Notes: a model not told the origin generated them from the letters alone. 64,000 nucleotides of DNA from Desulfobacteraceae bacterium (GCA_011042305.1 DQXI01000012.1:23984-87983), one strand, 5' to 3'. Positions 6,104-56,771 are shown, counted from the stretch's first letter. A program made the numbers and translations.

Positions 6104-8482
6104 TCAGATGTCGGACTTGAAGAAGCTTTCCGGCTCGACGACCTCCTCGGGCCGGCTGCTGTAGGTGGTCGGTTCGGTGCCTTCCTTGAAGCACTCGAAG
6201 CGGGTTTCCTTGGACTCGGCGATGGCCAGCAGGCCGGTTTCGGCGTCGATCTTGGCGAAGACCACCCCCTCGGGCACGGGGAACACCTCCGCCGGGCGGT
6301 CCTTGAGCAGGGTCTGCATGAAGCCGAGCCAGATGGGGCTGGCGGCCTGTGCGCCGGTTTCACCGTCGCCCAGGGGAGTGTCATCGTCAAAGCCGACCCA
6401 AACCCCGGTGGTGAACCCGGGCGTGTAGCCGACGAACCAGGCGTCGTGCAAGTCGTCGGTGGTGCCCGTCTTGCCGGCCACCGGCCGACCCAGGGCCTTG
6501 ACGCGCTGCCCGGTACCCTCCTGGACCACGCTTTCCAGCAGGCTGGTGACGATGTAGGCCGTGGCGGGGGAAATCACCGGCTCCCGTCGGTGTTCGGCCT
6601 CCTCAAGGACGTTACCGTCACGATCGACGATCCGGGTGACAAAGATCGGTTCCGCCCGCTGGCCCTGGTTGGCAAAGACCGAATAGGCCTTCACCAGCTC
6701 CAGCAGCGACACCCCCGAAGATCCCAGGGCAAGGGAAAGGTTGGGCGCCAGGGGAGAAGCGATGCCTAGGCTGCGGGCATAGTCGATGACATATTGGACC
6801 CCGATGTCGCGCAGCAGCTTCACCGTCACCACGTTGCGCGACTTGGCCAGGGCCCGGCGCAAGCTGGTGGGACCGTGAAAACGCCGCCCGTAGTTGCGCG
6901 GCTTCCAGGTAAAATCACGCTCCTCGTCATGGTAGATGATCGGCGCATCGATGAGCATCGAGGCCGGGGTGTAGCCCTTGTCGATGGCTGCGGCATAAAT
7001 GATCGGCTTGAAGGCGGACCCCGGCTGGCGGCGGGATTGAACCGCCCGGTTGAACTGGCTGGCGGCAAAGTCCCGGCCGCCGATCATCGCCCTGACCTCG
7101 CCGGTTGCATTTTCCAGGCAAAGCAGGGCCGCCTCGACCTGGGGCACCTGCTCGAGCGCCAGGATGCAAGGGTCGGTGTCTTCGACCCGCACCTGGACTA
7201 GGTCATTGACCGCCAGAATCTGGCTGGGCTTCTCCAGCCGTCCTTTGACCTCGCCCGAAACCGGATCCATCGGGCGCGCCCACTGCATCCCCGCCATCTG
7301 AATGACGCCTGACCGGGGGCCCAGATTCACCTCTACCTTGCCGGAGCGGTCGTCCACCGCCGTCACCACCGCCTCCCGGATTTCTCCCGGGACGGCAGCG
7401 GCAGCGGTGGCCCGGTGGGCGATCCATTCCTTGGCGCCTTCAGGGGTCAACGATTCCAGGGGGCCGCGGTATCCCCGGCGCTTGTCCAGGGCCCGGAGCC
7501 CCTTGTCGATTTCGCTGCGGGCGGCCTTCTGGGCCTCCGTATCAACGGCGGTATAGATCTGTAGCCCGTCGTTGAGCAGCCGCTGCTCGCCGTAACGCTC
7601 GATGACGTAGCGCCGCACGTGCTCGGTGTACACCGGCGCTTCTTCGAAAAACCAGTTGCGCCGGGGCTTGATCTCCAGTTCCGTCTCTGCCGCCGCCCGG
7701 GCTTCGGCCGGGGAGACCATCCCTTCTTCCACCATCCGGTTCAACACGTAGCGCTGCCGCTGCCGGGCACGCTCGGGGTGGCGGAACGGACTGTAGCGGC
7801 TCGGGGCCTGGGGCAGCCCGGCCAGCATGGCGCACTCGGCCAGATTGAGATCCGTCACGCGCTTGCCGAAGTAGTTCTCCGCCGCGGCTGCCACGCCGTA
7901 GGCCCCGTGGCCCAGGTAGATTTGGTTGAGGTACAGGTAGAGGATTTCATCCTTGGACAAAACCTGGTCGATGCGGTAGGCCAGGATGGCCTCCTTGATC
8001 TTGCGGGCGTAGGACCGCTCGGGGGTGAGCAGAAAGCTCTTGGTGACCTGCTGGGTGATGGTGCTGCCGCCCTGAACGATGGTTCCGGCCTTCAGGTTCT
8101 TGAAAAATGCCCTGGCGATGCTGGTCAGATCGATCCCCCGGTGCTGGTAGAAGCGGGAGTCCTCGGCGGCGACGAAGGCCTGGCGCAGTTTTTCGGGAAT
8201 CTGATCCATGCCCACCACGATCCGCCGCTCGGTGTAAAATTCCCCGATCTTGCGCCCGTCTTCGGCATAGACCCTGGAAACGATCGGCGGCCGGTAATCG
8301 ACGAGCGAATCAATGCGCGGCAAATCGGCGGACAGGTGCCGGTACAGCCCAACGGCACCGGCGGCAGCGGCCGCCAGCACCACCATTGCGGCCGCCATGC
8401 CCCACCACCCCCACCGCACCCGGCGGCGTGGTGGGGCGGTGGAGGTGGTTTGTTTTCGGCGTGGGTCCTTGATTTCTTTCAC
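6104..8482 (-). CDS. mrcA: Penicillin-binding protein 1A (bifunctional glycosyltransferase/transpeptidase)
   Basis: N-terminal TM segment, GT51 motifs (EDSRFYQHRGID, GGSTITQQ) and transpeptidase motifs SAFK, SRN and KTGT. Confidence 0.93.
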   Translation of the reverse strand: MKEIKDPRRKQTTSTAPPRRRVRWGWWGMAAAMVVLAAAAAGAVGLYRHLSADLPRIDSLVDYRPPIVSRVYAEDGRKIGEFYTERRIVVGMDQIPEKLRQAFVAAEDSRFYQHRGIDLTSIARAFFKNLKAGTIVQGGSTITQQVTKSFLLTPERSYARKIKEAILAYRIDQVLSKDEILYLYLNQIYLGHGAYGVAAAAENYFGKRVTDLNLAECAMLAGLPQAPSRYSPFRHPERARQRQRYVLNRMVEEGMVSPAEARAAAETELEIKPRRNWFFEEAPVYTEHVRRYVIERYGEQRLLNDGLQIYTAVDTEAQKAARSEIDKGLRALDKRRGYRGPLESLTPEGAKEWIAHRATAAAAVPGEIREAVVTAVDDRSGKVEVNLGPRSGVIQMAGMQWARPMDPVSGEVKGRLEKPSQILAVNDLVQVRVEDTDPCILALEQVPQVEAALLCLENATGEVRAMIGGRDFAASQFNRAVQSRRQPGSAFKPIIYAAAIDKGYTPASMLIDAPIIYHDEERDFTWKPRNYGRRFHGPTSLRRALAKSRNVVTVKLLRDIGVQYVIDYARSLGIASPLAPNLSLALGSSGVSLLELVKAYSVFANQGQRAEPIFVTRIVDRDGNVLEEAEHRREPVISPATAYIVTSLLESVVQEGTGQRVKALGRPVAGKTGTTDDLHDAWFVGYTPGFTTGVWVGFDDDTPLGDGETGAQAASPIWLGFMQTLLKDRPAEVFPVPEGVVFAKIDAETGLLAIAESKETRFECFKEGTEPTTYSSRPEEVVEPESFFKSDI

Positions 8483-8672
8483 GATTTCAATTCCTTGCGT
8501 CCCACCGCAACGCGCCTGAACAACTGCGGGAAAGCCATGCGGGAACTATTGAAATTAACAAAGATGCCCAGCCTTGGCAAGGCGGCCCGGGTTGAAAAAA
8601 GATTGACTTTCGATCAAGCGGCCGATAAAAGCATAGTTTTTGATAATTTCCAACCCCGGAGGCGGGTTGCTC

Positions 8673-9050
8673 ATGGTGGAACCGGATTTTGACAAATGTG
8701 GCGGGCTGGTGCCGGCCATCGCCCAGGACGCCCAAAGCGGCGATGTGCTGATGATGGCCTACATGAACCGAGAAGCCTGGCGGGCGACGGTGACCAGCGG
8801 CCAAGCCACTTACTGGAGCCGTTCGCGGGGCGAGCTGTGGGTCAAGGGGCAAAGCTCCGGCAACCTCCAGAAAGTCCACGAAATCTGGCTCGACTGTGAC
8901 AATGACACCATTTTGCTCAAGGTGACCCAAATCGGCGGCGCCGCCTGCCACACCGGTCACCGCTCGTGTTTTTACCGTCGGCTGGACGGCGATCACTTCA
9001 CTGTGGTCGGCAAGCCGCTGTTCAACCCCCAAGAGGTCTACGGCAAGTGA
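8673..9050 (+). CDS. hisI: Phosphoribosyl-AMP cyclohydrolase
   Basis: Conserved [22 protein letters not shown] and CHTGHRSCF motifs. ATG 8673 is preceded by a GGAGG-like RBS. Confidence 0.9.
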
Positions 9051-9922
9051 GCACTCCGCTAAAACTCGGTATCCCCAAGGGCAGCCTCCAGGAAGCTACC
9101 CTTGCCCTGTTCAAGCGCAGCGGCTGGAACATTCGCGTCAACGGCCGCAGCTATTTTCCCGAAATCGACGACCCGGACATCTCCTGCGCCATCTGCCGCG
9201 CCCAGGAGATGAGCTGCTACGTGGAAAACCAGACCCTGGACGCCGGGCTCACCGGGCGGGACTGGATCGCCGAAAACGCCTCGGACGTCCACCTGGTCTG
9301 CGACCTGGTCTACTCCAAGGTGAGCAGCCGCCCGGCGCGCTGGGTGCTGGCGGTGCCGTACGACTCTCCCATCCGCCGCCCCGAGGATCTGGTCGGCAAG
9401 AAGGTGGCCACCGAGCTGGTGGGCTTCACCCGGCGCTACTTTAGCGAACGCGGCATCGACGTAAAGGTCGAGTTTTCCTGGGGCGCCACCGAGGCCAAGG
9501 TAATCTCCGGCCTGGCCGATGCCGTCGTGGAAGTCACCGAGACCGAAAGCACCATCAAGGCCCACGGGCTGCGGATCATCCAAGAGCTGATGCAGACCAA
9601 CACCCAGCTCATCGCCAACCACCAGAGCTGGGCCGACCCAGTCAAGCATAAAAAGATCGAGCAGATCGCCCTGTTGCTCAAGGGAGCACTGTTGGGCGAA
9701 AAGCTGGTGGGCCTGAAGCTAAACGTGTCGGCGGAACACCTGGAAAAGGTGGTCAAGTTGCTGCCGAGCCTCCAGGCCCCAACGGTGGCGTCGCTGTACC
9801 AGAGCGACTGGTTTTCGGTGGAGTCGGTGGTGGCGGCCGACCGGGTGCGGGACCTGATTCCCGAGCTGCTGCATGCCGGGGGAGAGGGAATCATCGAATA
9901 TCCGCTCAACAAGGTAATTTGA
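9047..9922 (+). CDS. hisG: ATP phosphoribosyltransferase (long form)
   Basis: N-terminus [15 protein letters not shown]. About 291 aa, so it includes a C-terminal regulatory domain. GTG start 9047 overlaps the hisI stop (GTGA). Confidence 0.88.
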
Positions 9923-9948
9923 CAGGCTGCCGAGGCAGGGAAAACGCC

Positions 9949-11100
9949 ATGACCACATCACGACTGCGCCGCATGACCTCGTTTATCGTCTTGGACGTGC
10001 TGGAAAGGGCCCAGGAACTGGAGCGCCAGGGAATCGACGTGGTCCATCTGGAGGTGGGCGAGCCGGATTTCGACGCGCCGGCCTGCGTCAAGGCGGCCAT
10101 GTGCCGGGCCCTGGAAGACGGGCATACCCACTACACCCACAGCCTGGGGGTGCCGGCGCTGCGGGAGGCGATCTGTGCCGACTATCACCGGCGCTACGGC
10201 GTGCGGGCCCAGCCGGAAAACGTCATCGTCTTCCCCGGCACGTCCCCGGCCATGATGGCCCTGTTTGCCGCCCTGCTCGAGTCCGGCGATGAAACCATCA
10301 TCCCCGATCCCCACTACGCCTGCTACCCCAATTTCATCAAGTTCGTCGACGGGGTTCCGGTGACGGTGCCCATTTACGAAGCCGACGGGTTCCAGTATCG
10401 TCCCGAGGCCATCGCCGCCAGGATCACGCCCCGTACCAAGGCCATTTTCATCAATTCGCCGTCCAATCCCACGGGCAACCTGCTGTCAGCCGAGCGCATG
10501 GCGGCTATCGCCGAACTGGGGCCCTACGTGATCTCCGACGAGATTTACCACGGGTTGGTCTACGAGGGCGAGGCCCGTTCGATCCTCGAGTTTACCGACA
10601 AGGCCTTCGTTCTCAACGGCTTTTCCAAGCTCTACGCCATGACCGGTTTCCGCCTCGGTTATCTCATCGCGCCGCCGGCCTTCGTGCGCGCCATCCGGAA
10701 AATCGCCCAGAATTTTTTCATTTCGACCAACACCGCCGTTCAATACGCCGGCTTGGCAGCCCTGACCGACCCTTCCGTCGCGGCGGAGACGGCCCGGATG
10801 CGCGAGGTCTACAACCAGCGACGGCTGTTCATGATCAAACGCCTCCAGGAAATGGGGCTGGGAATCACCGTCCCGCCCACCGGCGCCTTTTACGTGTTCG
10901 CCAATGCGCGGCACATCAGCGCCGATTCCTACAAGCTGGCCTTCGACATCCTGGAAAAGGCCCACGTGGGCGTGACCCCCGGCATCGATTTCGGCCAAGG
11001 CGGCGAGGGCTACCTGCGCTTTTCCTACGCCAACTCGATGGAACGCATCGCCGAGGGAATGGATCGGCTGGAGCGATATTTGAAAATGGAAACAACATGA
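9949..11100 (+). CDS. Class I/II PLP-dependent aminotransferase (aspartate aminotransferase-like)
   Basis: PLP-lysine context NGFSKLYAMTGFRLGY and the INSPSNPTG motif. ATG 9949 is in frame with the track ORF. Confidence 0.9.
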   Translation: MTTSRLRRMTSFIVLDVLERAQELERQGIDVVHLEVGEPDFDAPACVKAAMCRALEDGHTHYTHSLGVPALREAICADYHRRYGVRAQPENVIVFPGTSPAMMALFAALLESGDETIIPDPHYACYPNFIKFVDGVPVTVPIYEADGFQYRPEAIAARITPRTKAIFINSPSNPTGNLLSAERMAAIAELGPYVISDEIYHGLVYEGEARSILEFTDKAFVLNGFSKLYAMTGFRLGYLIAPPAFVRAIRKIAQNFFISTNTAVQYAGLAALTDPSVAAETARMREVYNQRRLFMIKRLQEMGLGITVPPTGAFYVFANARHISADSYKLAFDILEKAHVGVTPGIDFGQGGEGYLRFSYANSMERIAEGMDRLERYLKMETT

Positions 11101-43561: not shown

Positions 43562-44365
43562 TCACTCCCGCAGACAACGCAGCCTGGCCAAGTTTTCGGC
43601 GTACCCGTACAGGTGCAACCCCTTGCTCTCCACGACCATTTCCCCGTCAGCCACCCCGATCTGGTCGGCCATGTATTCCTTCAGGTTCTGAATCCCCGCT
43701 AAGTTGGCAGGCATCCCCCCCCACAAGTCCCAAGAGCGGAAATAGACGAAAAAGTGCAGGGCGTTGTCCTGGATGCGGGTGTCGATGTGACGAAGGCAGG
43801 GCGGATCCACCAACACCAGGTCGCTGGGATGGGCCACCTGGAGCACCATCTGGTTGTTGCGGCCGCCGAATCGCTTGTAAGTATCGATGACCCACTCGAT
43901 CTGGTTGAGATAAAGCCGACCGTTTTCCTCGAAGACGATGCGCCCATCCACATCGCGGATATCAACGATCTCGCGCTGACCGTCGTTCCACCAAGCGAGT
44001 TTTTCTCCGTTTAGCGGGGCCTTTGTCAGCCGCTCGCCATAGGTGTAGGATTCTCCCGGCGCCTTTTCTCCGGTCATCAAGTACTCAATGTAGGACCGCT
44101 CGTAACCAGGCCCGCCATAGATGTAGGCCTCTTCCACCGGGTTGGGGATGCCGCAGGCGGGCGGGATATCCGGCAAAAGGGGCCGGGTGCCGGGAAATTT
44201 CACCCGGCCGGTGAAATAGTCGTACTCCAGGCGCGTCTGGCCGGCGTAGGAGCCCCGGTCGATGACGAAGCGCCGGCCGTGGTCGAGAATATCGTAGACG
44301 GCCTGAAACCATAGGTCCGGCAGATCCCGGGCCTCCAGCCGATGCAGCGAGAGTTGGTTTGGCAT
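43562..44365 (-). CDS. thyA: Divergent thymidylate synthase (ThyA family, archaeal/methanogen-like type)
   Basis: Catalytic Cys in DPPCLRH, the RSWDLWGGMPAN motif (RSxDxxxGxPxN), HLYGY, YTYGERL and an N-terminal DRGSYAGQT loop. It lies 31 nt downstream of gyrB on the same strand. Confidence 0.72.
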   Translation of the reverse strand: MPNQLSLHRLEARDLPDLWFQAVYDILDHGRRFVIDRGSYAGQTRLEYDYFTGRVKFPGTRPLLPDIPPACGIPNPVEEAYIYGGPGYERSYIEYLMTGEKAPGESYTYGERLTKAPLNGEKLAWWNDGQREIVDIRDVDGRIVFEENGRLYLNQIEWVIDTYKRFGGRNNQMVLQVAHPSDLVLVDPPCLRHIDTRIQDNALHFFVYFRSWDLWGGMPANLAGIQNLKEYMADQIGVADGEMVVESKGLHLYGYAENLARLRCLRE

Positions 44366-44396: not shown

Positions 44397-47938
<3,542 letters not shown>

Positions 47939-48178
47939 GACGGCACCCCTTTCTTCCTTTTCTAAATCAAATAATAAAAATAGTTAGGAAAGGCTGTGCA
48001 TATCGTTAATAACTTTATAGTTATCTGATTTTTAAGAAAAAATTACATATCCAGACTGTTAAAAAATTGTTAGCGTTCCGCTTATTCGATCCACAGTTAT
48101 CGTCCGTGCGGTTTCTTTTTGTTGATAAACGGGTGGGTTATCAACAAGCTTTGCACCGGTTTTCGACATAGGCGGGGT
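47939..48178. other. Putative oriC / DnaA-box cluster and AT-rich unwinding region upstream of dnaN
   Basis: This is the most AT-rich stretch I noticed in the window. DnaA-box-like 9-mers (consensus TTATCCACA): TGTTGATAA 48119-48127 and TTATCAACA 48137-48145 (8/9 each, a perfect inverted pair); CGATCCACA 48086-48094 (7/9); ATATCCAGA 48043-48051 (7/9); TGTGCATAT 47994-48002 (7/9). A/T tracts lie at 47960-47985 and 48025-48070. Confidence 0.45.
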
Positions 48179-48712
48179 TCAGCCCTCTTTGGTGCTGATC
48201 CAGACCTGGATAGCCGGCAGCACCGCCGACTGCCACCGGGGATCCAGGCGCTGCTCGAGGAAGTGGCTAAACAGGGACTGCACCAGGTCCGTCACTCGGC
48301 GGTAGAGATGATATTTTTCGATGGCGGCTCCCTCGATGTCTTCGCTGGTTTCCACCCGTCCGGTCTTGGGCGTCTTTACCGAGGAAGGATCCAGGGTTTC
48401 TCCCTTGATGCTGAAGTGCCAGCTCTCGTTCCCGGAGCGGTAGATCAGGCTCATCTCGGCCACCAGGGCGCCCTTGCGCAGGGCCAATATGCCTTCTTCC
48501 ATGCCGGCGGAGTCGCCGCGGATGGTCACCGTCTCGGTGCTCTGCTGGTTCTTGTTGTGCAGCACGAGACGATTGCCGATCTCCAGGGCTGCCATCTCGG
48601 GATCGATGCGCCGCAAGGTGTCCGGTTGATTCTCCACGGCGTACCAGAGCCAGGTGAGAAACTCTTTTCCCAAGAAATCGAAGCGCTTTAGCGCGTAGGC
48701 GATATCCATCAT
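48179..48712 (-). CDS. RdgC-like protein, C-terminal-part homolog
   Basis: 177 aa from ATG 48712 (MMDIAYALKRF...). By eye it resembles the last third of E. coli RdgC (FLTWLW, VTIRGD..., ALRKGALVAEMSL). The start overlaps the stop of the upstream RdgC N-part gene. Confidence 0.6.
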   Translation of the reverse strand: MMDIAYALKRFDFLGKEFLTWLWYAVENQPDTLRRIDPEMAALEIGNRLVLHNKNQQSTETVTIRGDSAGMEEGILALRKGALVAEMSLIYRSGNESWHFSIKGETLDPSSVKTPKTGRVETSEDIEGAAIEKYHLYRRVTDLVQSLFSHFLEQRLDPRWQSAVLPAIQVWISTKEG

Positions 48713-49335
48713 GATCCGTCTCGCTTGGCAAACGAACTGGGCGTCAGCTTGTTGAGCAAATCGCGCCGGGCATCGGTGAGCCCGGGGTGAAACGCGGCCA
48801 TAGTGTAGGGGAAAAGACGCACCAGGGAGAGGTTGAAGGACTTGGCAAAGAGGGATTCCAAAGCTTCGCCCACCGCCTTCTGGGTGGAAAAAAGCCACAG
48901 CTCGTTTTCCGGGTAAGCCCAAAGAATGTCATGAACACTTGGCGCAGCAGGAATTCTCAACGCCAGCACGTTGAGTACATGCTCCTTGAGCATTTTTTTT
49001 TCACTGCGCGACAAGAAGTCACGGCCTGTTTCCGCCTTGCGCTTGACCGAGGCCTCGGCCAAGTGCTTCTGGATCACCTTGGCAGGAATCGTTTTCTTAT
49101 CGATGCGCAGGGCGAAGAGGAAAAAATCGGCAATAGCAAAATTGCCATCCTCGAACGACGGCGCGTAAGGGCGATCCACGCAGGTCCAACCGATGGCGCG
49201 TTCCTCGGCCTGCTGGTCGATATCGCGGATGGCATAGCGCTTGAGCCCCTCGCGCACCGTTTCCAGCAGGGACCCGTCGGTTTGTCCCTCGACCCGGTAG
49301 CGGCTGATGGCCGCACTCGAACTAAAAAATCCCAT
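48709..49335 (-). CDS. rdgC: RdgC-like recombination-associated protein, N-terminal-part homolog
   Basis: 208 aa. It aligns by eye with RdgC residues 1 to about 190 (IGWTCVDRPY vs MGWVPPMGSH; KKTIPAKVIQKHL vs EKILPSPVIKQAL; SEKKMLKEHVLNVLALR vs TEKDSLKDEVLHSLLPR). Confidence 0.7.
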   Translation of the reverse strand: MGFFSSSAAISRYRVEGQTDGSLLETVREGLKRYAIRDIDQQAEERAIGWTCVDRPYAPSFEDGNFAIADFFLFALRIDKKTIPAKVIQKHLAEASVKRKAETGRDFLSRSEKKMLKEHVLNVLALRIPAAPSVHDILWAYPENELWLFSTQKAVGEALESLFAKSFNLSLVRLFPYTMAAFHPGLTDARRDLLNKLTPSSFAKRDGS

Positions 49336-49385: not shown

Positions 49386-49414
49386 TTGAAACCCCAAAAG
49401 AATCTTTATATACT
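49386..49414 (+). promoter_or_regulatory. Sigma-70-type promoter of the EndoQ-UvrD/HEAT unit
   Basis: TTGAAA (49386-49391), 17-nt spacer, TATACT (49409-49414). An approximately 165-nt leader contains the hairpin TTGCCCC/GGGGCAA at 49501-49519. Confidence 0.5.
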
Positions 49415-49581
49415 TCTTATTGTCTAAAATCTCAAGGAAAATTAGAAACTTTCCCCTTTCGTTGCTCCCATCGGGGTTTAGCGGTATAACCAAGGTGGTT
49501 TTGCCCCTGCCCGGGGCAACGGAAGCGGTTCAAACGATCCGGCCCTGGGTTAAAACTGTATCTGTCTTAATCCAATAGGTA

Positions 49582-52500
49582 ATGAAATTTATAGCTGATC
49601 TTCATGTTCATTCCCGTCACTCGCGAGCCACCTCCCGCGACCTGAACCTCGAGAGCCTCTATATCGGCGCCCAACTCAAGGGAATTCAGGTGCTGGCCAC
49701 CGGAGATGCCACCCATCCGGCCTGGTTCGACGAGTTGGAGAACCGATTGGAACCGGCTGAAGCGGGCCTGTATCGCCTGCGGCCAGAGGTGGCCCGGGTC
49801 TGTGACCAGTCGGTGCCCGAGCGATGCCGGGGGCCGGTGCGGTTTGTCATCGGCACCGAGATCAGCAACATCTATAAAAAGGACGGCCGCACCCGCAAGA
49901 ATCACAACCTCGTCTTCATGCCGGACCTTGAAAAGGCCGCACGCTTCAACCGGCGGCTGGAGAAAATCGGCAACATCCACAGCGACGGCCGCCCGATCCT
50001 GGGCCTCGATGCCCGGGATCTGCTGGAGATCGTGCTGGAAACCGACCCCGCCGCCTACCTGGTGCCCGCCCATATCTGGACGCCCTGGTTTTCCATGCTC
50101 GGCAGCCAGTCCGGCTTCGACAGCCTGGATGAGTGCTTCGGCGACCTGAGCGGCCACGTATTCGCTGCCGAAACCGGCCTTTCCTCCGATCCACCGATGA
50201 ACTGGCGCGTCTCCGGCCTGGATCGGTTGACGTTGATTTCCAACTCCGATGCCCACTCGGCAGCCAAGCTGGGCCGGGAGGCCAACCGTTTTGACACCGA
50301 GCTCTCCTTTCTCGGCATCCGTCGCGCCATGGCCCAGGGCGTGGCCGGCGGCTTCCAGGGCACCATCGAGTTTTTTCCCCAGGAGGGAAAATACCACCTG
50401 GACGGCCACCGGGCCTGCGGCGTGTGTCTTACACCTGACGAAACCCGGCGCCTCAACGGCATCTGTCCGGCGTGCCACCGGCCGTTGACCCGCGGCGTGC
50501 TCCACCGGGTTACCGACCTGGCGGATCGGCCCGAGGGGGCGCCGGGGCCAACGGGTTCGGCCCCGTTTTGTCACCTGTTGCCCCTGGACGACATTCTGGC
50601 CGAGGTGTTGCGCTGCGGTCCGGCGACCAAGAAGGTGGCCAAGGCCTACCGCCAAGCGCTGGAGCGTCTCGGCAGCGAACTGAAAATCCTCATGGAACTG
50701 GATCGGGAGGCCATCGAGGCCGCCGATATTCCCCTGCTGGCCGAGGCTGTCTGCCGGATGCGACGGGGCCGGGTGACCATCGATCCCGGCCATGACGGCG
50801 CTTACGGCCGAATCCAGATTTTCTCCGCAGGCGAAAGGGGCCGGCTGTTGGGACAGCAGACCCTTTTTTCCCTTTCGACCGCCGCCAGCGATTCGGATTC
50901 GGGTTTGGCCCGCGTGGCGAAGCCGGCGCCATCGCCCCAACGCCAAGAGAGCCTGAAATTTGCCGGTCCGGTGCCCGATCCGCCGGCGCGGCTCAACGAG
51001 CCCCAGCGCCTAGCGGTGGAAGCGCCGGACGGGCCCCTGGTCATCGTGGCCGGCCCCGGCACAGGTAAGACTTTCACCCTGACCCGGCGCATCGCCAGGT
51101 TGATTTCCGTCCGAAAGGTTCCCGCCCGTCAGATCCTGGCGGTGACCTTCACTCGCCAGGCCGCTGATGCCCTGCGCCATCGCATTGTCGGCCAACTCGG
51201 TCCGGGGGTTGACCTGCCGGAGATCGGCACCTTTCATGGCCTTTGCGCCAAGTTTCTCGCCGAGCTGGGCGACGGCCCCGCGGCCATCGCCGACGACGCC
51301 TGTCGTCTGGCCCTGGTGCGGGACGCCATCGTGCAGGTCTCCGATGGTGGGCGACGGCCTGTGTCCACCCGTCGAGCGGCCGCTTTCATCGAGGCCCGCA
51401 AACAGGCGGACGCCAGCGTTTTTCAGGGCGACCCGGCAGACGGGTTTTTGGAGCGCGTCTACGAAAGCTACCAGCGGCTGCTGGCCGCCGACGGCTGGGC
51501 CGACTATGACGACCTGATCGCCCGCATGGTTGAAATCCTGGAAAGCGGCGACGCGCGGGCCAGTTCGCTGAAGGCACGCTTTACCCATGTTTTCGTCGAC
51601 GAGTTCCAGGACATTAACCCGGCCCAGTACCGCCTGGTGCGCACCCTGGCCCCGCCGGGGGCCAACCTGTTCGCCATAGGCGACCCGGACCAGTGTATCT
51701 ACGGTTTCCGCGGATCCGACCCGGCCCTGATGGACCGGCTGCGTCGCGACGACCCCGGCATGCAGGTGATCCGTCTGACCCGAAGCTATCGGTGTCCCCA
51801 GAGGATCCTGGAAGCCGCCGGCGAGGTCTTGGCCGCCGCTGCACCTCAACGCCCGCTTCTGGAGGGCGCCGGTTGCGGACCCAAGGTGGCTGTGGTGAAG
51901 GCTCCGAGCGAAAAGGCCGAGGCGGTGGCCATTGGCCGCATCATCGAACAGCGGGTGGGCGGCAGCGGTTTCGAGACCGTCAACTTCGGCGTGCTGAATG
52001 CCGGGAACGGACCCTGTCGGGACAGTTTTTCCGACTTCGCGGTCCTTTTTCGCACCCACGCCCGGGGCCAACGCATCGCCCAAGTGCTCCAGGCCGGCGG
52101 CATTCCTTGCCAATTTGCCAGCCGGAGGCGCGTGAGCGACGACCCTGCCGTGGCCGGCCTGATGGCCTTGCTGCGGTTGGTGGACGGGCGCGCCGGGCTC
52201 ATCGATCTGCAGCAGTCCTTGGCCTGGCTGCCCGAGGCGCCGGGGCGCAAGGCGTTGGAAATTTTCAAGCACTGGTGCTACCGCCGGGGCCTTAGCCTGG
52301 CGCAGGGCCTGCGCCAGGCGGTCCGGCTGCCGGTGGACGGTCTCAGCGTGTCTCGCCAGCGCCGCTTGGTGGCGGCCATCGAGCGCCTTCAAACCCTCGT
52401 GGAGGCGACAAAAGCCCTGCCGCTGGCGGAAAAAATCGTTTATCTTGTTGGAAAAACAAGGCTTTCGAAAATACTCGACCCATTGCCGGAAGCGCTCTCT

Positions 52501-52905
52501 CAACTGGTGCCAGCGTGCCGTGACACGGGCGAGTTTCTCACGCGGGTGGCACTGACCGCCGATGCGGACATCTACGACGCCCGGGCCGAACGGGTGACGC
52601 TGCTGAGCCTGCATGCCGCCAAGGGGCTCGAGTTCCCGGTGGTGTTCATCGCCGGCTGCGAAGACGGCCTGATTCCCCTCAAGCGGCCGGGGGTCACCGT
52701 GGATCTTGCCGAGGAGCGGCGCCTGTTTTACGTGGGAATGACCCGCGCCAGCCAGGCCCTCTACCTCTGTGCCGCCCAGGGGCAGGCGGGCCAGGGAAGG
52801 CTGTCTCCGTTTATCGGCGAGATCGGCGCTGGGCTCAAGTTCGACGAAACCCCTTCCCGCCCGGCGCCCAGGCGGCCGCGGCAGACCCAGATGTCTCTTT
52901 TTTGA
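49582..52905 (+). CDS. Fusion protein: Endonuclease Q-like PHP nuclease (N-terminal ~430 aa) + UvrD/PcrA-type SF1 helicase (C-terminal ~640 aa)
   Basis: EndoQ-type motifs: FIADLHVHSRHS, PAHIWTPWFS, SNSDAHS, GREANRF, GKYHLDGH, a Zn ribbon CGVC...CPAC, and GAYGRIQIF. UvrD motifs: AGPGTGKT, VFVDEFQD, GDPDQCIYGFRG, LTRSYRC, LHAAKGLEFPVVF, RRLFYVGMTRA. Confidence 0.9.
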   Translation: MKFIADLHVHSRHSRATSRDLNLESLYIGAQLKGIQVLATGDATHPAWFDELENRLEPAEAGLYRLRPEVARVCDQSVPERCRGPVRFVIGTEISNIYKKDGRTRKNHNLVFMPDLEKAARFNRRLEKIGNIHSDGRPILGLDARDLLEIVLETDPAAYLVPAHIWTPWFSMLGSQSGFDSLDECFGDLSGHVFAAETGLSSDPPMNWRVSGLDRLTLISNSDAHSAAKLGREANRFDTELSFLGIRRAMAQGVAGGFQGTIEFFPQEGKYHLDGHRACGVCLTPDETRRLNGICPACHRPLTRGVLHRVTDLADRPEGAPGPTGSAPFCHLLPLDDILAEVLRCGPATKKVAKAYRQALERLGSELKILMELDREAIEAADIPLLAEAVCRMRRGRVTIDPGHDGAYGRIQIFSAGERGRLLGQQTLFSLSTAASDSDSGLARVAKPAPSPQRQESLKFAGPVPDPPARLNEPQRLAVEAPDGPLVIVAGPGTGKTFTLTRRIARLISVRKVPARQILAVTFTRQAADALRHRIVGQLGPGVDLPEIGTFHGLCAKFLAELGDGPAAIADDACRLALVRDAIVQVSDGGRRPVSTRRAAAFIEARKQADASVFQGDPADGFLERVYESYQRLLAADGWADYDDLIARMVEILESGDARASSLKARFTHVFVDEFQDINPAQYRLVRTLAPPGANLFAIGDPDQCIYGFRGSDPALMDRLRRDDPGMQVIRLTRSYRCPQRILEAAGEVLAAAAPQRPLLEGAGCGPKVAVVKAPSEKAEAVAIGRIIEQRVGGSGFETVNFGVLNAGNGPCRDSFSDFAVLFRTHARGQRIAQVLQAGGIPCQFASRRRVSDDPAVAGLMALLRLVDGRAGLIDLQQSLAWLPEAPGRKALEIFKHWCYRRGLSLAQGLRQAVRLPVDGLSVSRQRRLVAAIERLQTLVEATKALPLAEKIVYLVGKTRLSKILDPLPEALSQLVPACRDTGEFLTRVALTADADIYDARAERVTLLSLHAAKGLEFPVVFIAGCEDGLIPLKRPGVTVDLAEERRLFYVGMTRASQALYLCAAQGQAGQGRLSPFIGEIGAGLKFDETPSRPAPRRPRQTQMSLF

Positions 52906-52915
52906 GGCCACCCCC

Positions 52916-53812
52916 ATGACCAAGGACAACGTCATCCGTTTCGACAGCCAGGCGCGGTTGCACCAAAAGGCGCTGGCCTATTTAGAGGATCTCGATGCCT
53001 TTCTCTCGGATCTCGACCGCGCCGTGCCCCTGCTGCTGCAGGTGCTCAAGGGATCGGCGGACGACGATCTGAAACAGCAGATCATCATGCTGCTGGGCGG
53101 GTTCGCCAAGCGGCAGGTTGCGCGCCCGCTCCTGGAGCTGATGTGCGACGAGAACCAGAGCGACGAGGTGCGGCATCAGGCCGCCGTCCAGCTTTCGGTG
53201 ACCGCGTCTTTTCTCGAGGCCCCCGAGGCGGTTGTCGAGGCCCTCATCGCCCAGTTGAACCATCCGGACCCCCAGCACCGGGCCAACGCCACCTTCGCCC
53301 TGGGCTGGGAGGGCAACCACCGGGCCGCCGTGGCCTTGGTGGAAAAGCTTTTCGATCCCAGCGCCGAGGTACAGCAGGCGGCGGTCAACGCCCTTTCCAA
53401 CCTGCGCGATGACCGGATTCTCGACCTGCTCCTCGACCGGCTGGCCCACGGGTCCGTGGACCAGCAACGGGCCATCCTTTTTAACTTGTGGCGGTTTTAC
53501 AGCCGGCGCGAGCAGGTGCTGGCCGTTTACCGCGACTACCTGCGCCATCCGGATCCGGCCCTGCGCCTCGACGCCCTGGTGCTGATGGGCACTGTGAGCG
53601 AAACGGCGGACGAGGTGGACCGCTACCTGGAGCTGCTGCAGGACGAGCAGGAACGGATTCGCGAGCTGGTTCTGGAGAGGCTGGAGGATTTGCCTCCAGA
53701 GCACCTTGTCGCCGTCGCCGAGCCCGTTCGTTCGCTGCTTTCCGACCCTTCGGCCAAGGTTCGCCAGGCCGCCGTGCGGCTGTTGGCAAGAGTTGAAACG
53801 AAATTTTCTTGA
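52916..53812 (+). CDS. HEAT-repeat protein (PBS-lyase HEAT-like repeats)
   Basis: 298 aa from ATG 52916. Repeated approximately 30-aa helical units with D/N-P-x-x-x-V-R-x-x-A patterns (DEVRHQAAVQL, DPQHRANATFAL, SAEVQQAAVNAL, DPALRLDALVL, SAKVRQAAVRLL). It starts 11 nt after the fusion gene. Confidence 0.8.
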   Translation: MTKDNVIRFDSQARLHQKALAYLEDLDAFLSDLDRAVPLLLQVLKGSADDDLKQQIIMLLGGFAKRQVARPLLELMCDENQSDEVRHQAAVQLSVTASFLEAPEAVVEALIAQLNHPDPQHRANATFALGWEGNHRAAVALVEKLFDPSAEVQQAAVNALSNLRDDRILDLLLDRLAHGSVDQQRAILFNLWRFYSRREQVLAVYRDYLRHPDPALRLDALVLMGTVSETADEVDRYLELLQDEQERIRELVLERLEDLPPEHLVAVAEPVRSLLSDPSAKVRQAAVRLLARVETKFS

Positions 53813-53853: not shown

Positions 53854-53928
53854 GCGGGAATAACTCAGTGGTAGAGTGCGACCTTGCCAAGGTCGAAGTC
53901 GCGGGTTCAAATCCCGTTTCCCGCTCCA
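53854..53928 (+). tRNA. tRNA-Gly (anticodon GCC), CCA encoded
   Basis: GCGGGAATAACTCAGTGGTAGAGTGCGACCTTGCCAAGGTCGAAGTCGCGGGTTCAAATCCCGTTTCCCGCTCCA. This gives a cloverleaf with a 7-bp acceptor stem, anticodon loop CTTGCCAAG and T-loop GGTTCAAATCC. It is close to E. coli tRNA-Gly(GCC). Confidence 0.93.
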
Positions 53929-53939
53929 CGACACCCCCT

Positions 53940-53978
53940 AGACCCATCGGGCGCACCTGCCCGGTGGGTCTGTTCTTT
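53940..53978 (+). terminator. Rho-independent terminator after tRNA-Gly
   Basis: Stem AGACCCATCGGGC/GCCCGGTGGGTCT (one mismatch), followed by GTTCTTT. Confidence 0.6.
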
Positions 53979-55742: not shown

Positions 55743-56771
55743 ATGCGGCGCGACCAGCTCATTCGGCAGTGGTCCCTGCTCAGCCGGCTCGAATCCAGCC
55801 TGGCCGGTCTCACTGTGGCGCAGATGGCCGCCGCCGGCGGCGTCTCCGAGCGCACCATCTACCGCGACCTGGCCGATCTGCAGGCCGCTGGTTTTCCTCT
55901 GCACAGCGTCAAAGAGAAAGACGAAACCCGCTGGCGTTTCGTCGAAGGGTACGTGTTCAGGACCCCCCGGCCCATCCGCGCCAGCGAGCTGCTGGCGTTG
56001 CACCTGGCCCGTGACATGCTCACCGCCTTTCGCGGCACGGTGTTTCACCAGGAGCTCGAAGGTCTCTGGCAGACCATCGAGGCGGGGCTGGCGCCGGCCA
56101 CGCGGGATTTCTTGGAGGGCATCAAGGACCTGTATCGCATCGGTCCGGGCCCGGACCACCAGTACGTGGCCCGGGCCGAGATCGTCGCCCGGCTCAACCA
56201 GGCCCTGAGCGAGCGCCACTCGGTGGACATGGCCTACCATTCTCTGAAGAGCCCGGAGCGCCGGGTGCGGCGGGTGGACCCCTATGCCCTGTGGTTCAAG
56301 AACAACACCTTGTATTTGGTGGCATTCTGCCACCGGCGCGGCCAGGTGCGCATCTTCGCCGTGGACCGCATCAGCATGATCCAGGCCACCAGCGAGCGCT
56401 TTACCATCGCCGCCGATTTCGACCTGGACCGCTACCTGGCCGACTGCTTCGGGGTGATGCGTGGGGAGGCCTGCAACGTGCGCATCCGCATCAGCCCGGC
56501 CTGGGCGCGCTACGTGGCCGAGCGCACCTGGCACCCCAGCCAGCACATCCAGGGGCATATCGACGGCGGCATCGAGATCGCCTTCCGCGTGGCCGGGCTG
56601 GAGGAAATCCGGCAGTGGGTCCTCTCCCTGGGCCCCGAGGCCCGGGTGATCGAGCCGCCCGAACTCAAGGCAGAGGTGGTTCAAAGCCTGGCCGAAGCCC
56701 TGGCGCTCTACGACACCGGCGACCAGCGGGGCGAGGCGCCCCGGCAGGCCAGCTTGCCGGGGTTGGGTTGA
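55743..56771 (+). CDS. HTH-WYL-WCX transcriptional regulator (YafY/PafBC-like)
   Basis: N-terminal wHTH (VSERTIYRDLADLQAAGFPL), a WYL domain (VDPYALWFKNNTLYLVAFCHRRGQVRIFAVDRI) and a C-terminal WCX-like domain. Confidence 0.9.
   Translation: MRRDQLIRQWSLLSRLESSLAGLTVAQMAAAGGVSERTIYRDLADLQAAGFPLHSVKEKDETRWRFVEGYVFRTPRPIRASELLALHLARDMLTAFRGTVFHQELEGLWQTIEAGLAPATRDFLEGIKDLYRIGPGPDHQYVARAEIVARLNQALSERHSVDMAYHSLKSPERRVRRVDPYALWFKNNTLYLVAFCHRRGQVRIFAVDRISMIQATSERFTIAADFDLDRYLADCFGVMRGEACNVRIRISPAWARYVAERTWHPSQHIQGHIDGGIEIAFRVAGLEEIRQWVLSLGPEARVIEPPELKAEVVQSLAEALALYDTGDQRGEAPRQASLPGLG

Follow-up and report, generated by a model that had tools for sequence, protein, structure and literature searches.

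Endonuclease Q (EndoQ) is known as a repair enzyme that nicks DNA 5' of deoxyuridine (dU), deoxyinosine (dI), deoxyxanthosine (dX) and apurinic/apyrimidinic (AP) sites, leaving a 3'-OH, and the stand-alone enzymes of bacteria are reported to have the same substrate range as the archaeal enzyme. Archaeal EndoQ has a C-terminal PCNA-interacting protein (PIP) box that binds PCNA, and PCNA stimulates the enzyme; the consensus for binding the bacterial β sliding clamp is QL[S/D]LF (Shiraishi et al. 2016, PMC4858679). For the steps after the nick, the 2015 repair model offers either strand displacement by a polymerase together with Fen1, or EndoV together with an unnamed helicase that removes the damaged stretch. 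The gene described here, from a Desulfobacteraceae bacterium (GCA_011042305.1, DQXI01000012.1:23984-87983; this stretch of 64,000 nucleotides is called the window, and positions are counted from its first letter), joins an EndoQ and a UvrD-type helicase in one polypeptide. Two conserved motifs of the β-clamp-binding type say most about how this fusion is probably deployed, the binding itself being predicted. We give a probability of about 60% to the reading that the fusion is a clamp-tethered repair enzyme which nicks and then unwinds at dU, dI and AP sites, a chromosomal housekeeping role with three functions in one chain. The parts of the gene are:

49582..52905, plus strand: EndoQ-UvrD fusion gene, ATG start, 1107 amino acids and stop codon, no interruption
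49582..50820, plus strand: EndoQ module (residues 1-413), with PHP metal-binding, Zn-binding and C-terminal helical domains
50851..50868, plus strand: internal β-clamp-binding-like motif GQQTLF (residues 424-429), at the place where stand-alone EndoQ proteins end
50869..50985, plus strand: linker (residues 430-468), predicted to be disordered (predicted local distance difference test score, pLDDT, below 50), of low conservation and with many alignment gaps
50986..52854, plus strand: UvrD/PcrA-type helicase module of superfamily 1A (SF1A; residues 469-1091), with all ATPase/helicase motifs
52888..52902, plus strand: putative C-terminal β-clamp-binding motif QMSLF (residues 1103-1107, the last five of the protein)

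The G+C content of the stretch is ~0.65, and long antisense open reading frames (ORFs) lie opposite the fusion gene (49567-50946 and 51010-52935, both on the minus strand); ORF length alone proves nothing, because high G+C yields such antisense frames too. The gene is real because full-length colinear homologs exist, and because a copy differing in one residue is present on an independent Joint Genome Institute (JGI) metagenome contig. The 120 best homologs listed are all colinear with the fusion (coverage 98-100%, identity 46-100%, length 1105-1209 amino acids), and go by the database names 'UvrD-helicase domain-containing protein' or 'TIGR00375 family'. Judged by these relatives, the ORF is neither an artefact of assembly or frameshift nor a chance product of GC-rich DNA, and the first-pass annotation of the window was right to see one uninterrupted frame of 1107 codons joining the two enzymes. 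A run of six T following the internal motif (ACC CTT TTT TCC, 50860-50871) was considered as a site of programmed frameshift or slippage that would yield a stand-alone EndoQ isoform; this was rejected because the run is not kept in relatives and there is no conserved nearby stop codon in the +1 or -1 frame.

The N-terminal part had been taken for EndoQ along its whole length, and this is what we find. Residues 5-413 align with residues 5-382 of the Pyrococcus furiosus enzyme (PfuEndoQ, PDB structures 5zb8 and 7k30) at ~30% identity and without large gaps (E-value 2e-50), and all the motifs named in the first-pass annotation are in their places. The profile search proposed there, with EndoQ or a generic PHP phosphatase as the possible outcomes, recovered PfuEndoQ and the whole NCBIfam TIGR00375 profile (positions 2-374 of 374), the latter at a score below its curated cut-off. 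The AlphaFold2 model of the module superimposes on 5zb8 with a template modeling (TM) score of 0.87 and a root-mean-square deviation of 2.6 Å, and on 7k30 with a TM score of 0.86. The Pfu metal ligands His8, His10, Glu76, His84, His139, Asp193 and His195, mutation of which abolishes PfuEndoQ activity, align with His8, His10, Glu93, His108, His164, Asp223 and His225 of the fusion; Glu93 and His225 are kept in 119 of the 120 homologs and the other five in all of them. His139, Gly169 and Ser171 of PfuEndoQ keep T and A out of the lesion pocket (these mutational and structural data are taken from a review of published work), and their counterparts His164, Gly199 and Ser201 are likewise invariant (120/120). 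By this comparison the EndoQ module is full-length and its catalytic residues are intact.

The putative Zn site deviates from the archaeal pattern. The ribbon had been described as Cys4; four putative ligands do occur at the Pfu positions (Cys249, Cys252, Cys268 and Cys271), as His276, Cys279, Cys295 and Cys298 of the fusion, all invariant, and the first of them is histidine. Cys282 is kept in only 21 of the 120 homologs, so that the alignment makes the putative site of the fusion family His-Cys3, not Cys4. With the stand-alone enzymes (PF1551 of P. furiosus, TK0887 of T. kodakarensis, and those of B. pumilus and B. subtilis) the module shares the three-domain fold, the metal ligands, the Gly/Ser pair of the pocket and a clamp motif that closes the module. 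It differs from them in the putative first Zn ligand, in the modest identity already given and in its standing below the TIGR00375 cut-off; and, unlike archaeal EndoQ, it has a motif of the bacterial β-clamp type instead of a PIP box, and a helicase of 640 amino acids attached after it.

The C-terminal part carries every SF1A motif, as had been claimed for it: motifs I-VI are all present (GPGTGKT at 491-497, VDEFQD at 672-677, GDPDQCIYGFRG at 700-711, YR at 736-737, HAAKGLEF at 1011-1018 and VGMTRA at 1051-1056), and the core residues, i.e., Walker A G491-T497, D673/E674/Q676/D677, G700-G711, Y736/R737 and T1054-A1056, are invariant in 51 aligned sequences. Residues 469-1091 match UvrD, PcrA and Rep structures in PDB (E-values 1e-49 to 1e-71, 26-31% identity), and the Pfam UvrD-helicase and UvrD_C families score 203.9 and 119.7 bits, against cut-offs of 23 and 25.6. 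The equivalog models tell a different story, with 306 bits for PcrA (cut-off 911), 271 for UvrD (1144) and 254 for Rep (951); on these scores the helicase is not an orthologous UvrD or PcrA. All four subdomains and all conserved motifs of UvrD, PcrA and Rep are nevertheless shared, and TM scores to UvrD-DNA complexes are ~0.8 (0.81 to 2is6). What the fusion lacks is the C-terminal domain of UvrD/PcrA (~75 residues): alignments end at PcrA residue 649 of 724 and at UvrD residue 638, leaving 16 mostly disordered residues, so the protein ends in a short disordered tail bearing the clamp motif instead. In UvrD and PcrA that domain contacts RNA polymerase and UvrB. The AlphaFold2 model of the complete chain (mean pLDDT 83, predicted TM score 0.59) consists of two well-folded modules, the disordered linker and a disordered tail (1096-1107).

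Neither clamp motif had been noticed in the first-pass annotation. Among the 120 listed homologs, the three key positions of the internal motif are kept in 119 (Q), 115 (L) and 120 (F), and those of the C-terminal motif in 119 (Q), 117 (L/M), 118 (L) and 118 (F). As whole patterns, GQxxLF is kept in 119 and Q[LM]xLF in 118 of these 120. The C-terminal motif also persists far from the window: it is present in all but one of 58 complete fused genes, which come from many phyla, and it falls within the last 12 residues of 87 (strict pattern) or 109 (relaxed pattern) of 128 long proteins, each of them the representative of a cluster at 50% identity; the background elsewhere in the same 128 proteins is 0.16% per 12-residue window. 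In the structural model the C-terminal motif sits in the predicted-disordered tail, and the internal one closes a helix just before the disordered linker.

Genes that are not fused help to explain why there are two motifs. Unfused EndoQ genes with a UvrD-type neighbor were observed in Elusimicrobia, Nitrospirae, Planctomycetales and Omnitrophota (loci L050, L059, L063 and L064 of our survey; the pairs lie at ~8001-11000 in both L050 and L064, at 5577-8813 in L059 and from 2216 in L063). The helicase gene starts 4-167 nucleotides after the EndoQ gene. The EndoQ proteins of such split loci are 423-443 amino acids long, and split and stand-alone bacterial EndoQ end in GQxxLF directly before the stop codon. 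Three of the split helicases end in a motif of their own (QMGLF in L059, QLKLF in L063, QMTLF in L064); that of L050 does not. To judge from these sequences, the four loci show this system in a natural, unfused state, and the fusion has two motifs because EndoQ and helicase each end in one where the genes are separate.

The family is large. With the EndoQ domain as query, 1070 clusters (50% identity) were found at an E-value of 1e-30 or better, and ~131 of the best 150 clusters are 950-1370 amino acids long, i.e., fused. A scan of one genome per species confirmed at least 600 related loci in more than 20 phyla; 80 loci were kept for study, ~60 of them fused and ~16 split, stand-alone or broken. 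These 80 include Desulfobacterota, Myxococcota, Chloroflexota, Acidobacteriota, Gemmatimonadota, Planctomycetota, Bacteroidota, Actinomycetota, Nitrospirota, Alphaproteobacteria and one Firmicute (Neomoorella). The EndoQ literature places the enzyme in 'a few' or 'a limited number of' bacteria; the present survey counts 1070 clusters and no fewer than 600 bacterial species genomes, and its best-scoring clusters are mostly helicase-fused. In several loci from metagenome-assembled genomes the fusion frame is truncated or interrupted (L017, L018, L029, L040, L045, L062, L069, L077 and L082), and in L018, L045 and L062 helicase pieces resume in other frames or beyond runs of N; such broken frames are probably errors of assembly or sequencing, or pseudogenes.

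Fusions of this kind were already on record in 2015-2017, and the long form is listed there without being biochemically characterized. Supplementary Figure S1 of Shiraishi et al. (2016, Sci Rep, PMC4858679) tabulates ~34 bacterial 'EndoQ homologs' of ~950-1240 amino acids with putative clamp motifs at residues ~940-1244, from Desulfobacterium autotrophicum, Desulfobacter curvatus, Desulfobulbus japonicus, Geobacter metallireducens, Sorangium, Rhodothermus and Zymomonas among others, and about ten short homologs that end near residues 405-464. The discovery paper of 2015 includes domain diagrams of bacterial homologs, and the structure paper of 2018 sorts EndoQ proteins into three families by domain organization, crediting this to work of 2017. 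The long homologs of 2016, some of them from lineages related to that of the window (Desulfobacterium, Desulfobacter, Desulfobulbus, Geobacter), agree with the fusion in size, in the N-terminal EndoQ and in a C-terminus of the QL[SD]LF type, so that the protein of the window (1107 amino acids, QMSLF) is a further member of that set. The table of 2016 gives one clamp motif for each protein, whereas the second, internal motif and the split pairs that explain it were seen in the present analysis. The fusion had been thought uncharacterized; full-text searches of the literature, the scope of which left out the 2017 paper defining the families and a 2021 PNAS structure paper, found no biochemical study of the long EndoQ-helicase form, and the listing of 2016 means that the fusion is not new.

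If the parts work as their relatives do, repair might proceed as follows. The fusion would dock on the β clamp, possibly in both clefts of the dimer, on clamp-loaded DNA. The EndoQ module would then nick immediately 5' of a dU, dI or AP site, leaving a 3'-OH, and the tethered 3'-5' helicase would load at the nick and peel off the lesion-bearing strand; alternatively, with a second cut 3' of the lesion (for example, by EndoV), it would release a short oligonucleotide. Clamp-bound polymerase, a 5' nuclease and ligase would complete the repair, by a route that is incision-first and independent of glycosylases.

The closest analogy is with mismatch repair, in which a clamp-activated MutL endonuclease nicks the DNA and UvrD unwinds it. 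The logic would be the same, i.e., a nick dependent on the β clamp followed by UvrD-type unwinding from that nick. EndoQ, however, is not homologous to MutL; the nick would be directed by the lesion and not by a mismatch sensor, and both activities would reside in one chain.

Several points weigh against this reading. For the long form, the specificity of the nick, the polarity of the helicase, its docking on the clamp and the sequence of steps are all inferred. On the nicked strand itself, a 3'-5' helicase would travel away from the lesion, so that a productive geometry would need either entry on the complementary strand or a further nick; the choice of strand is, together with the simultaneous use of both motifs, the weakest step of the scheme. 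The EndoQ module scores 150.8 bits against an equivalog cut-off of 326.6 for TIGR00375, and since the PcrA and UvrD cut-offs are missed as well, the fusion is, on profile scores, a diverged paralogue of the EndoQ, PcrA and UvrD families. The AlphaFold2 model does not place the two modules confidently with respect to one another, as its predicted TM score indicates. Finally, only about one in two of the distant fusions keeps the internal motif (29 of the 58 complete fused genes and 63 of 128 long cluster representatives), and because of this the filling of both clamp clefts cannot be universal. There is also a more specific version of the scheme: the two motifs may fill both clefts of one β-clamp dimer, nicking and unwinding may be licensed only on clamp-loaded, newly replicated DNA, and a HEAT-repeat protein encoded next to the fusion may be an adaptor added in this Desulfobacterales lineage. 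We regard this version as tentative and, taken as a whole, doubtful.

Further alternatives depend on the genes around the fusion, which upstream and farther downstream include:

43562-44365, minus strand: thyA, adjoining gyrB-dnaN (44397-47938, minus strand)
46820..47938, minus strand: dnaN (β sliding clamp), the predicted docking partner, with all three DNA_pol3_beta domains, 1.6 kb upstream of the fusion gene
48120-48146, intergenic, upstream of dnaN: two DnaA boxes with one mismatch each (TTATCAACA), inverted, 10 nucleotides apart
48179-48712, minus strand: conserved protein of 177 amino acids, no Pfam match, overlapping the next gene; the pair is divergent from the fusion gene
48709-49335, minus strand: RdgC-N-like protein of 208 amino acids, matching positions 8-127 of the 298-position RdgC profile
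55743-56771, plus strand: HTH-WYL-WCX regulator of the PafBC type, 2.8 kb downstream of the fusion gene

Elsewhere the window encodes an RND efflux system, a class II aminoacyl-tRNA synthetase and an acyl-CoA ligase-type enzyme, and with thyA, gyrB, dnaN and RdgC the context is chromosomal and housekeeping. RdgC itself appears split or diverged at 48179-49335, and the pair of genes located there is found again in at least 10 related loci, each time with dnaN on one side and the fusion on the other. The gene thyA keeps its place beside gyrB-dnaN in 9 or more related loci, no farther than 5-6 kb from the EndoQ fusion, and this may be mere synteny. Its product, thymidylate synthase, limits the supply of dUTP. 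Clustering of the ORFs within 4 kb of the fusion in more than 80 loci produced no partner gene common across phyla; it did produce synteny groups specific to lineages (dnaN, gyrB, thyA, RdgC and the 177-residue protein).

The earlier description of this context, an RdgC gene and a putative replication origin beside the fusion, stands as regards RdgC, of which the N-terminal half is a neighbor. An origin is not established: near-consensus DnaA boxes in the window number 6, against 4.7 expected, and so are not enriched; the minimum of GC skew is shallow; the intergenic region between RdgC and the fusion holds no DnaA box, and no dnaA gene was seen beside dnaN.

The alternative that fares best against this background makes the protein a replisome-associated accessory helicase of the Rep/PcrA kind, tethered to the clamp, which would clear obstacles or scan new DNA behind the fork while EndoQ removes misincorporated dUMP or dIMP from nascent strands, in place of a genome-wide repair of deamination. 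The two clamp motifs would suit such a role, as would the position by dnaN, gyrB and thyA, conserved in Desulfobacterales-like genomes, and the absence of the UvrD/PcrA C-terminal domain makes the classical roles of UvrD less likely. Against it, dnaN is linked in only 7 of the 49 fused loci with enough upstream sequence, all of them Desulfobacterales-like, so that the linkage is order-level synteny and not a property of the fusion family; the stand-alone EndoQ enzymes studied so far attack deaminated bases in normal double-stranded DNA; and sequence does not separate replication-coupled from general repair. A replisome role of this kind, which would differ only in the place and time of action, is improbable in comparison with repair by clamp-tethered nicking and unwinding.

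The next alternative concerns the HEAT-repeat gene and the transcription unit to which it belongs:

49386..49414, plus strand: sigma-70-like promoter candidate TTGAAA-17 nucleotides-TATACT, 10 of 12 consensus positions, ~165 nucleotides 5' of the start codon of the fusion
49501-49519, plus strand: GC-rich hairpin TTGCCCC-TGCCC-GGGGCAA with a perfect 7-bp stem and no T-run after it, in the leader of ~165 nucleotides
52916..53812, plus strand: HEAT-repeat gene, 298 amino acids, starting 10 nucleotides after the stop codon of the fusion
53854..53928, plus strand: tRNA-Gly(GCC), 42 nucleotides after the HEAT stop codon (Rfam 71 bits; also found by ARAGORN)
53939..53972, plus strand: terminator-like hairpin with a 15-bp stem, directly after tRNA-Gly

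A near-consensus promoter had been proposed for the two genes and stands as a candidate, by consensus match; there are 2 promoter-like sites in 6.5 kb, against 0.7 expected, and no promoter-like or terminator-like site was found between the fusion and HEAT genes. An Rfam scan of the leader gave no match to a structured RNA. With this spacing and with GAGG 8 nucleotides before its ATG, the HEAT gene is probably co-transcribed with the fusion; the hairpin at 53939..53972 likely ends the transcription unit, to which tRNA-Gly may also belong. The length of the HEAT protein, its closeness and probable co-transcription were thus correctly described at first, with a gap of 10 nucleotides and not 11; the genome survey that was to show linkage conserved in relatives found adjacency only in the window's own clade, and there is no partner synteny beyond close relatives.

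It could be supposed that the fusion and the HEAT protein form an obligate two-component complex, with HEAT as scaffold or DNA-binding partner. The short gap, the GAGG, the uninterrupted intergenic region and the adjacency of the two genes in L001/L002, L003, L004/L005, L006, L007 and L090, which with the window make up its clade, speak in favor. However, among 49 other fused loci for which 1.5 kb or more of downstream sequence exists, 47 lack HEAT beside the fusion and 2 have it; it is missing in L091, and in L089, where the fusion is 56% identical and follows the same gyrB-dnaN-177aa-RdgC arrangement. HEAT orthologs of ~50% identity occur in three unrelated contexts, i.e., after RmuC, between a HAD hydrolase and a DinB-like gene, and after glutamate dehydrogenase; and, as noted, no neighbor is conserved across phyla. 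The protein matches Pfam HEAT_2 (E-value 1.6e-28), a generic repeat profile, and in PDB only designed alphaRep proteins and phycocyanobilin lyase. With Pfam offering just generic HEAT/Arm matches, its assignment to the HEAT-like-repeat DNA glycosylases (AlkD type) or to a known DNA-binding family was found to be unsupported. The HEAT gene is a lineage-restricted neighbor or accessory, outside the core machine, and an obligate complex is quite unlikely. A self-contained module for incision plus unwinding, as first proposed, stays the most reasonable reading of the fusion, and it is the HEAT scaffold that has to be given up. The first-pass annotation is thus partly supported: it was probably right in seeing a repair module, whereas its views on novelty and on HEAT as a partner were wrong.

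AddAB, RecBCD, AdnAB and the Gabija protein GajB likewise combine a UvrD-like motor with a nuclease. Their nucleases, however, are of the PD-(D/E)xK (RecB-type) or TOPRIM (GajA) kind and act on DNA ends or in defense, whereas that of the fusion is an N-terminal PHP enzyme, predicted to be lesion-specific, and no partner subunit is conserved. A search of 2.9 million viral contigs turned up no relative, and one of 72,556 plasmids, a 733-kb Brevibacillus plasmid, has one; a mobile or viral origin of the fusion was rejected on these surveys. The WYL regulator was rejected as a linked feature, with a counterpart beside the fusion in only 1 of 91 loci; in that locus, L091, a related WYL regulator (8412-9359) starts 31 nucleotides after the fusion, and a UvrA-like gene lies ~1.1 kb downstream. 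A role as nuclease-helicase in surveillance of phage or other foreign DNA, for example against dU-containing phage genomes or in the manner of GajB, is very improbable, in agreement with the low rank given to it at first: the helicase half does match many PADLOC GajB profiles (E-values down to 4e-68), a review mentions a suggested antiviral role for bacterial EndoQ, and the WYL-WCX regulator is near, but the GajB matches are generic to the UvrD fold and confined to the helicase part, no GajA/OLD-family partner or other defense gene is adjacent, the regulator is not kept, relatives are absent from the viral contigs and nearly absent from the plasmids searched, and the housekeeping neighborhood is retained across relatives with fusions only ~50% identical, as expected of a vertically inherited core gene.

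The interest of these observations lies in a large and widespread family and not in the present copy, which adds its own membership and a lineage-specific HEAT neighbor. What is understood of repair that begins with EndoQ comes only from the stand-alone enzymes of Archaea and Bacillus, and the steps after the nick are still a model. The long form physically attaches a helicase to EndoQ, and could offer a naturally coupled nickase-helicase as a model for biochemistry. If the tentative, more specific version is the correct one, with nicking and unwinding licensed on newly replicated DNA, the family would carry, already fused, the helicase step of the 2015 model of archaeal EndoQ repair, and it would represent a widespread, glycosylase-independent and replication-coupled pathway of dU and dI excision, a 'MutL plus UvrD in one chain'.

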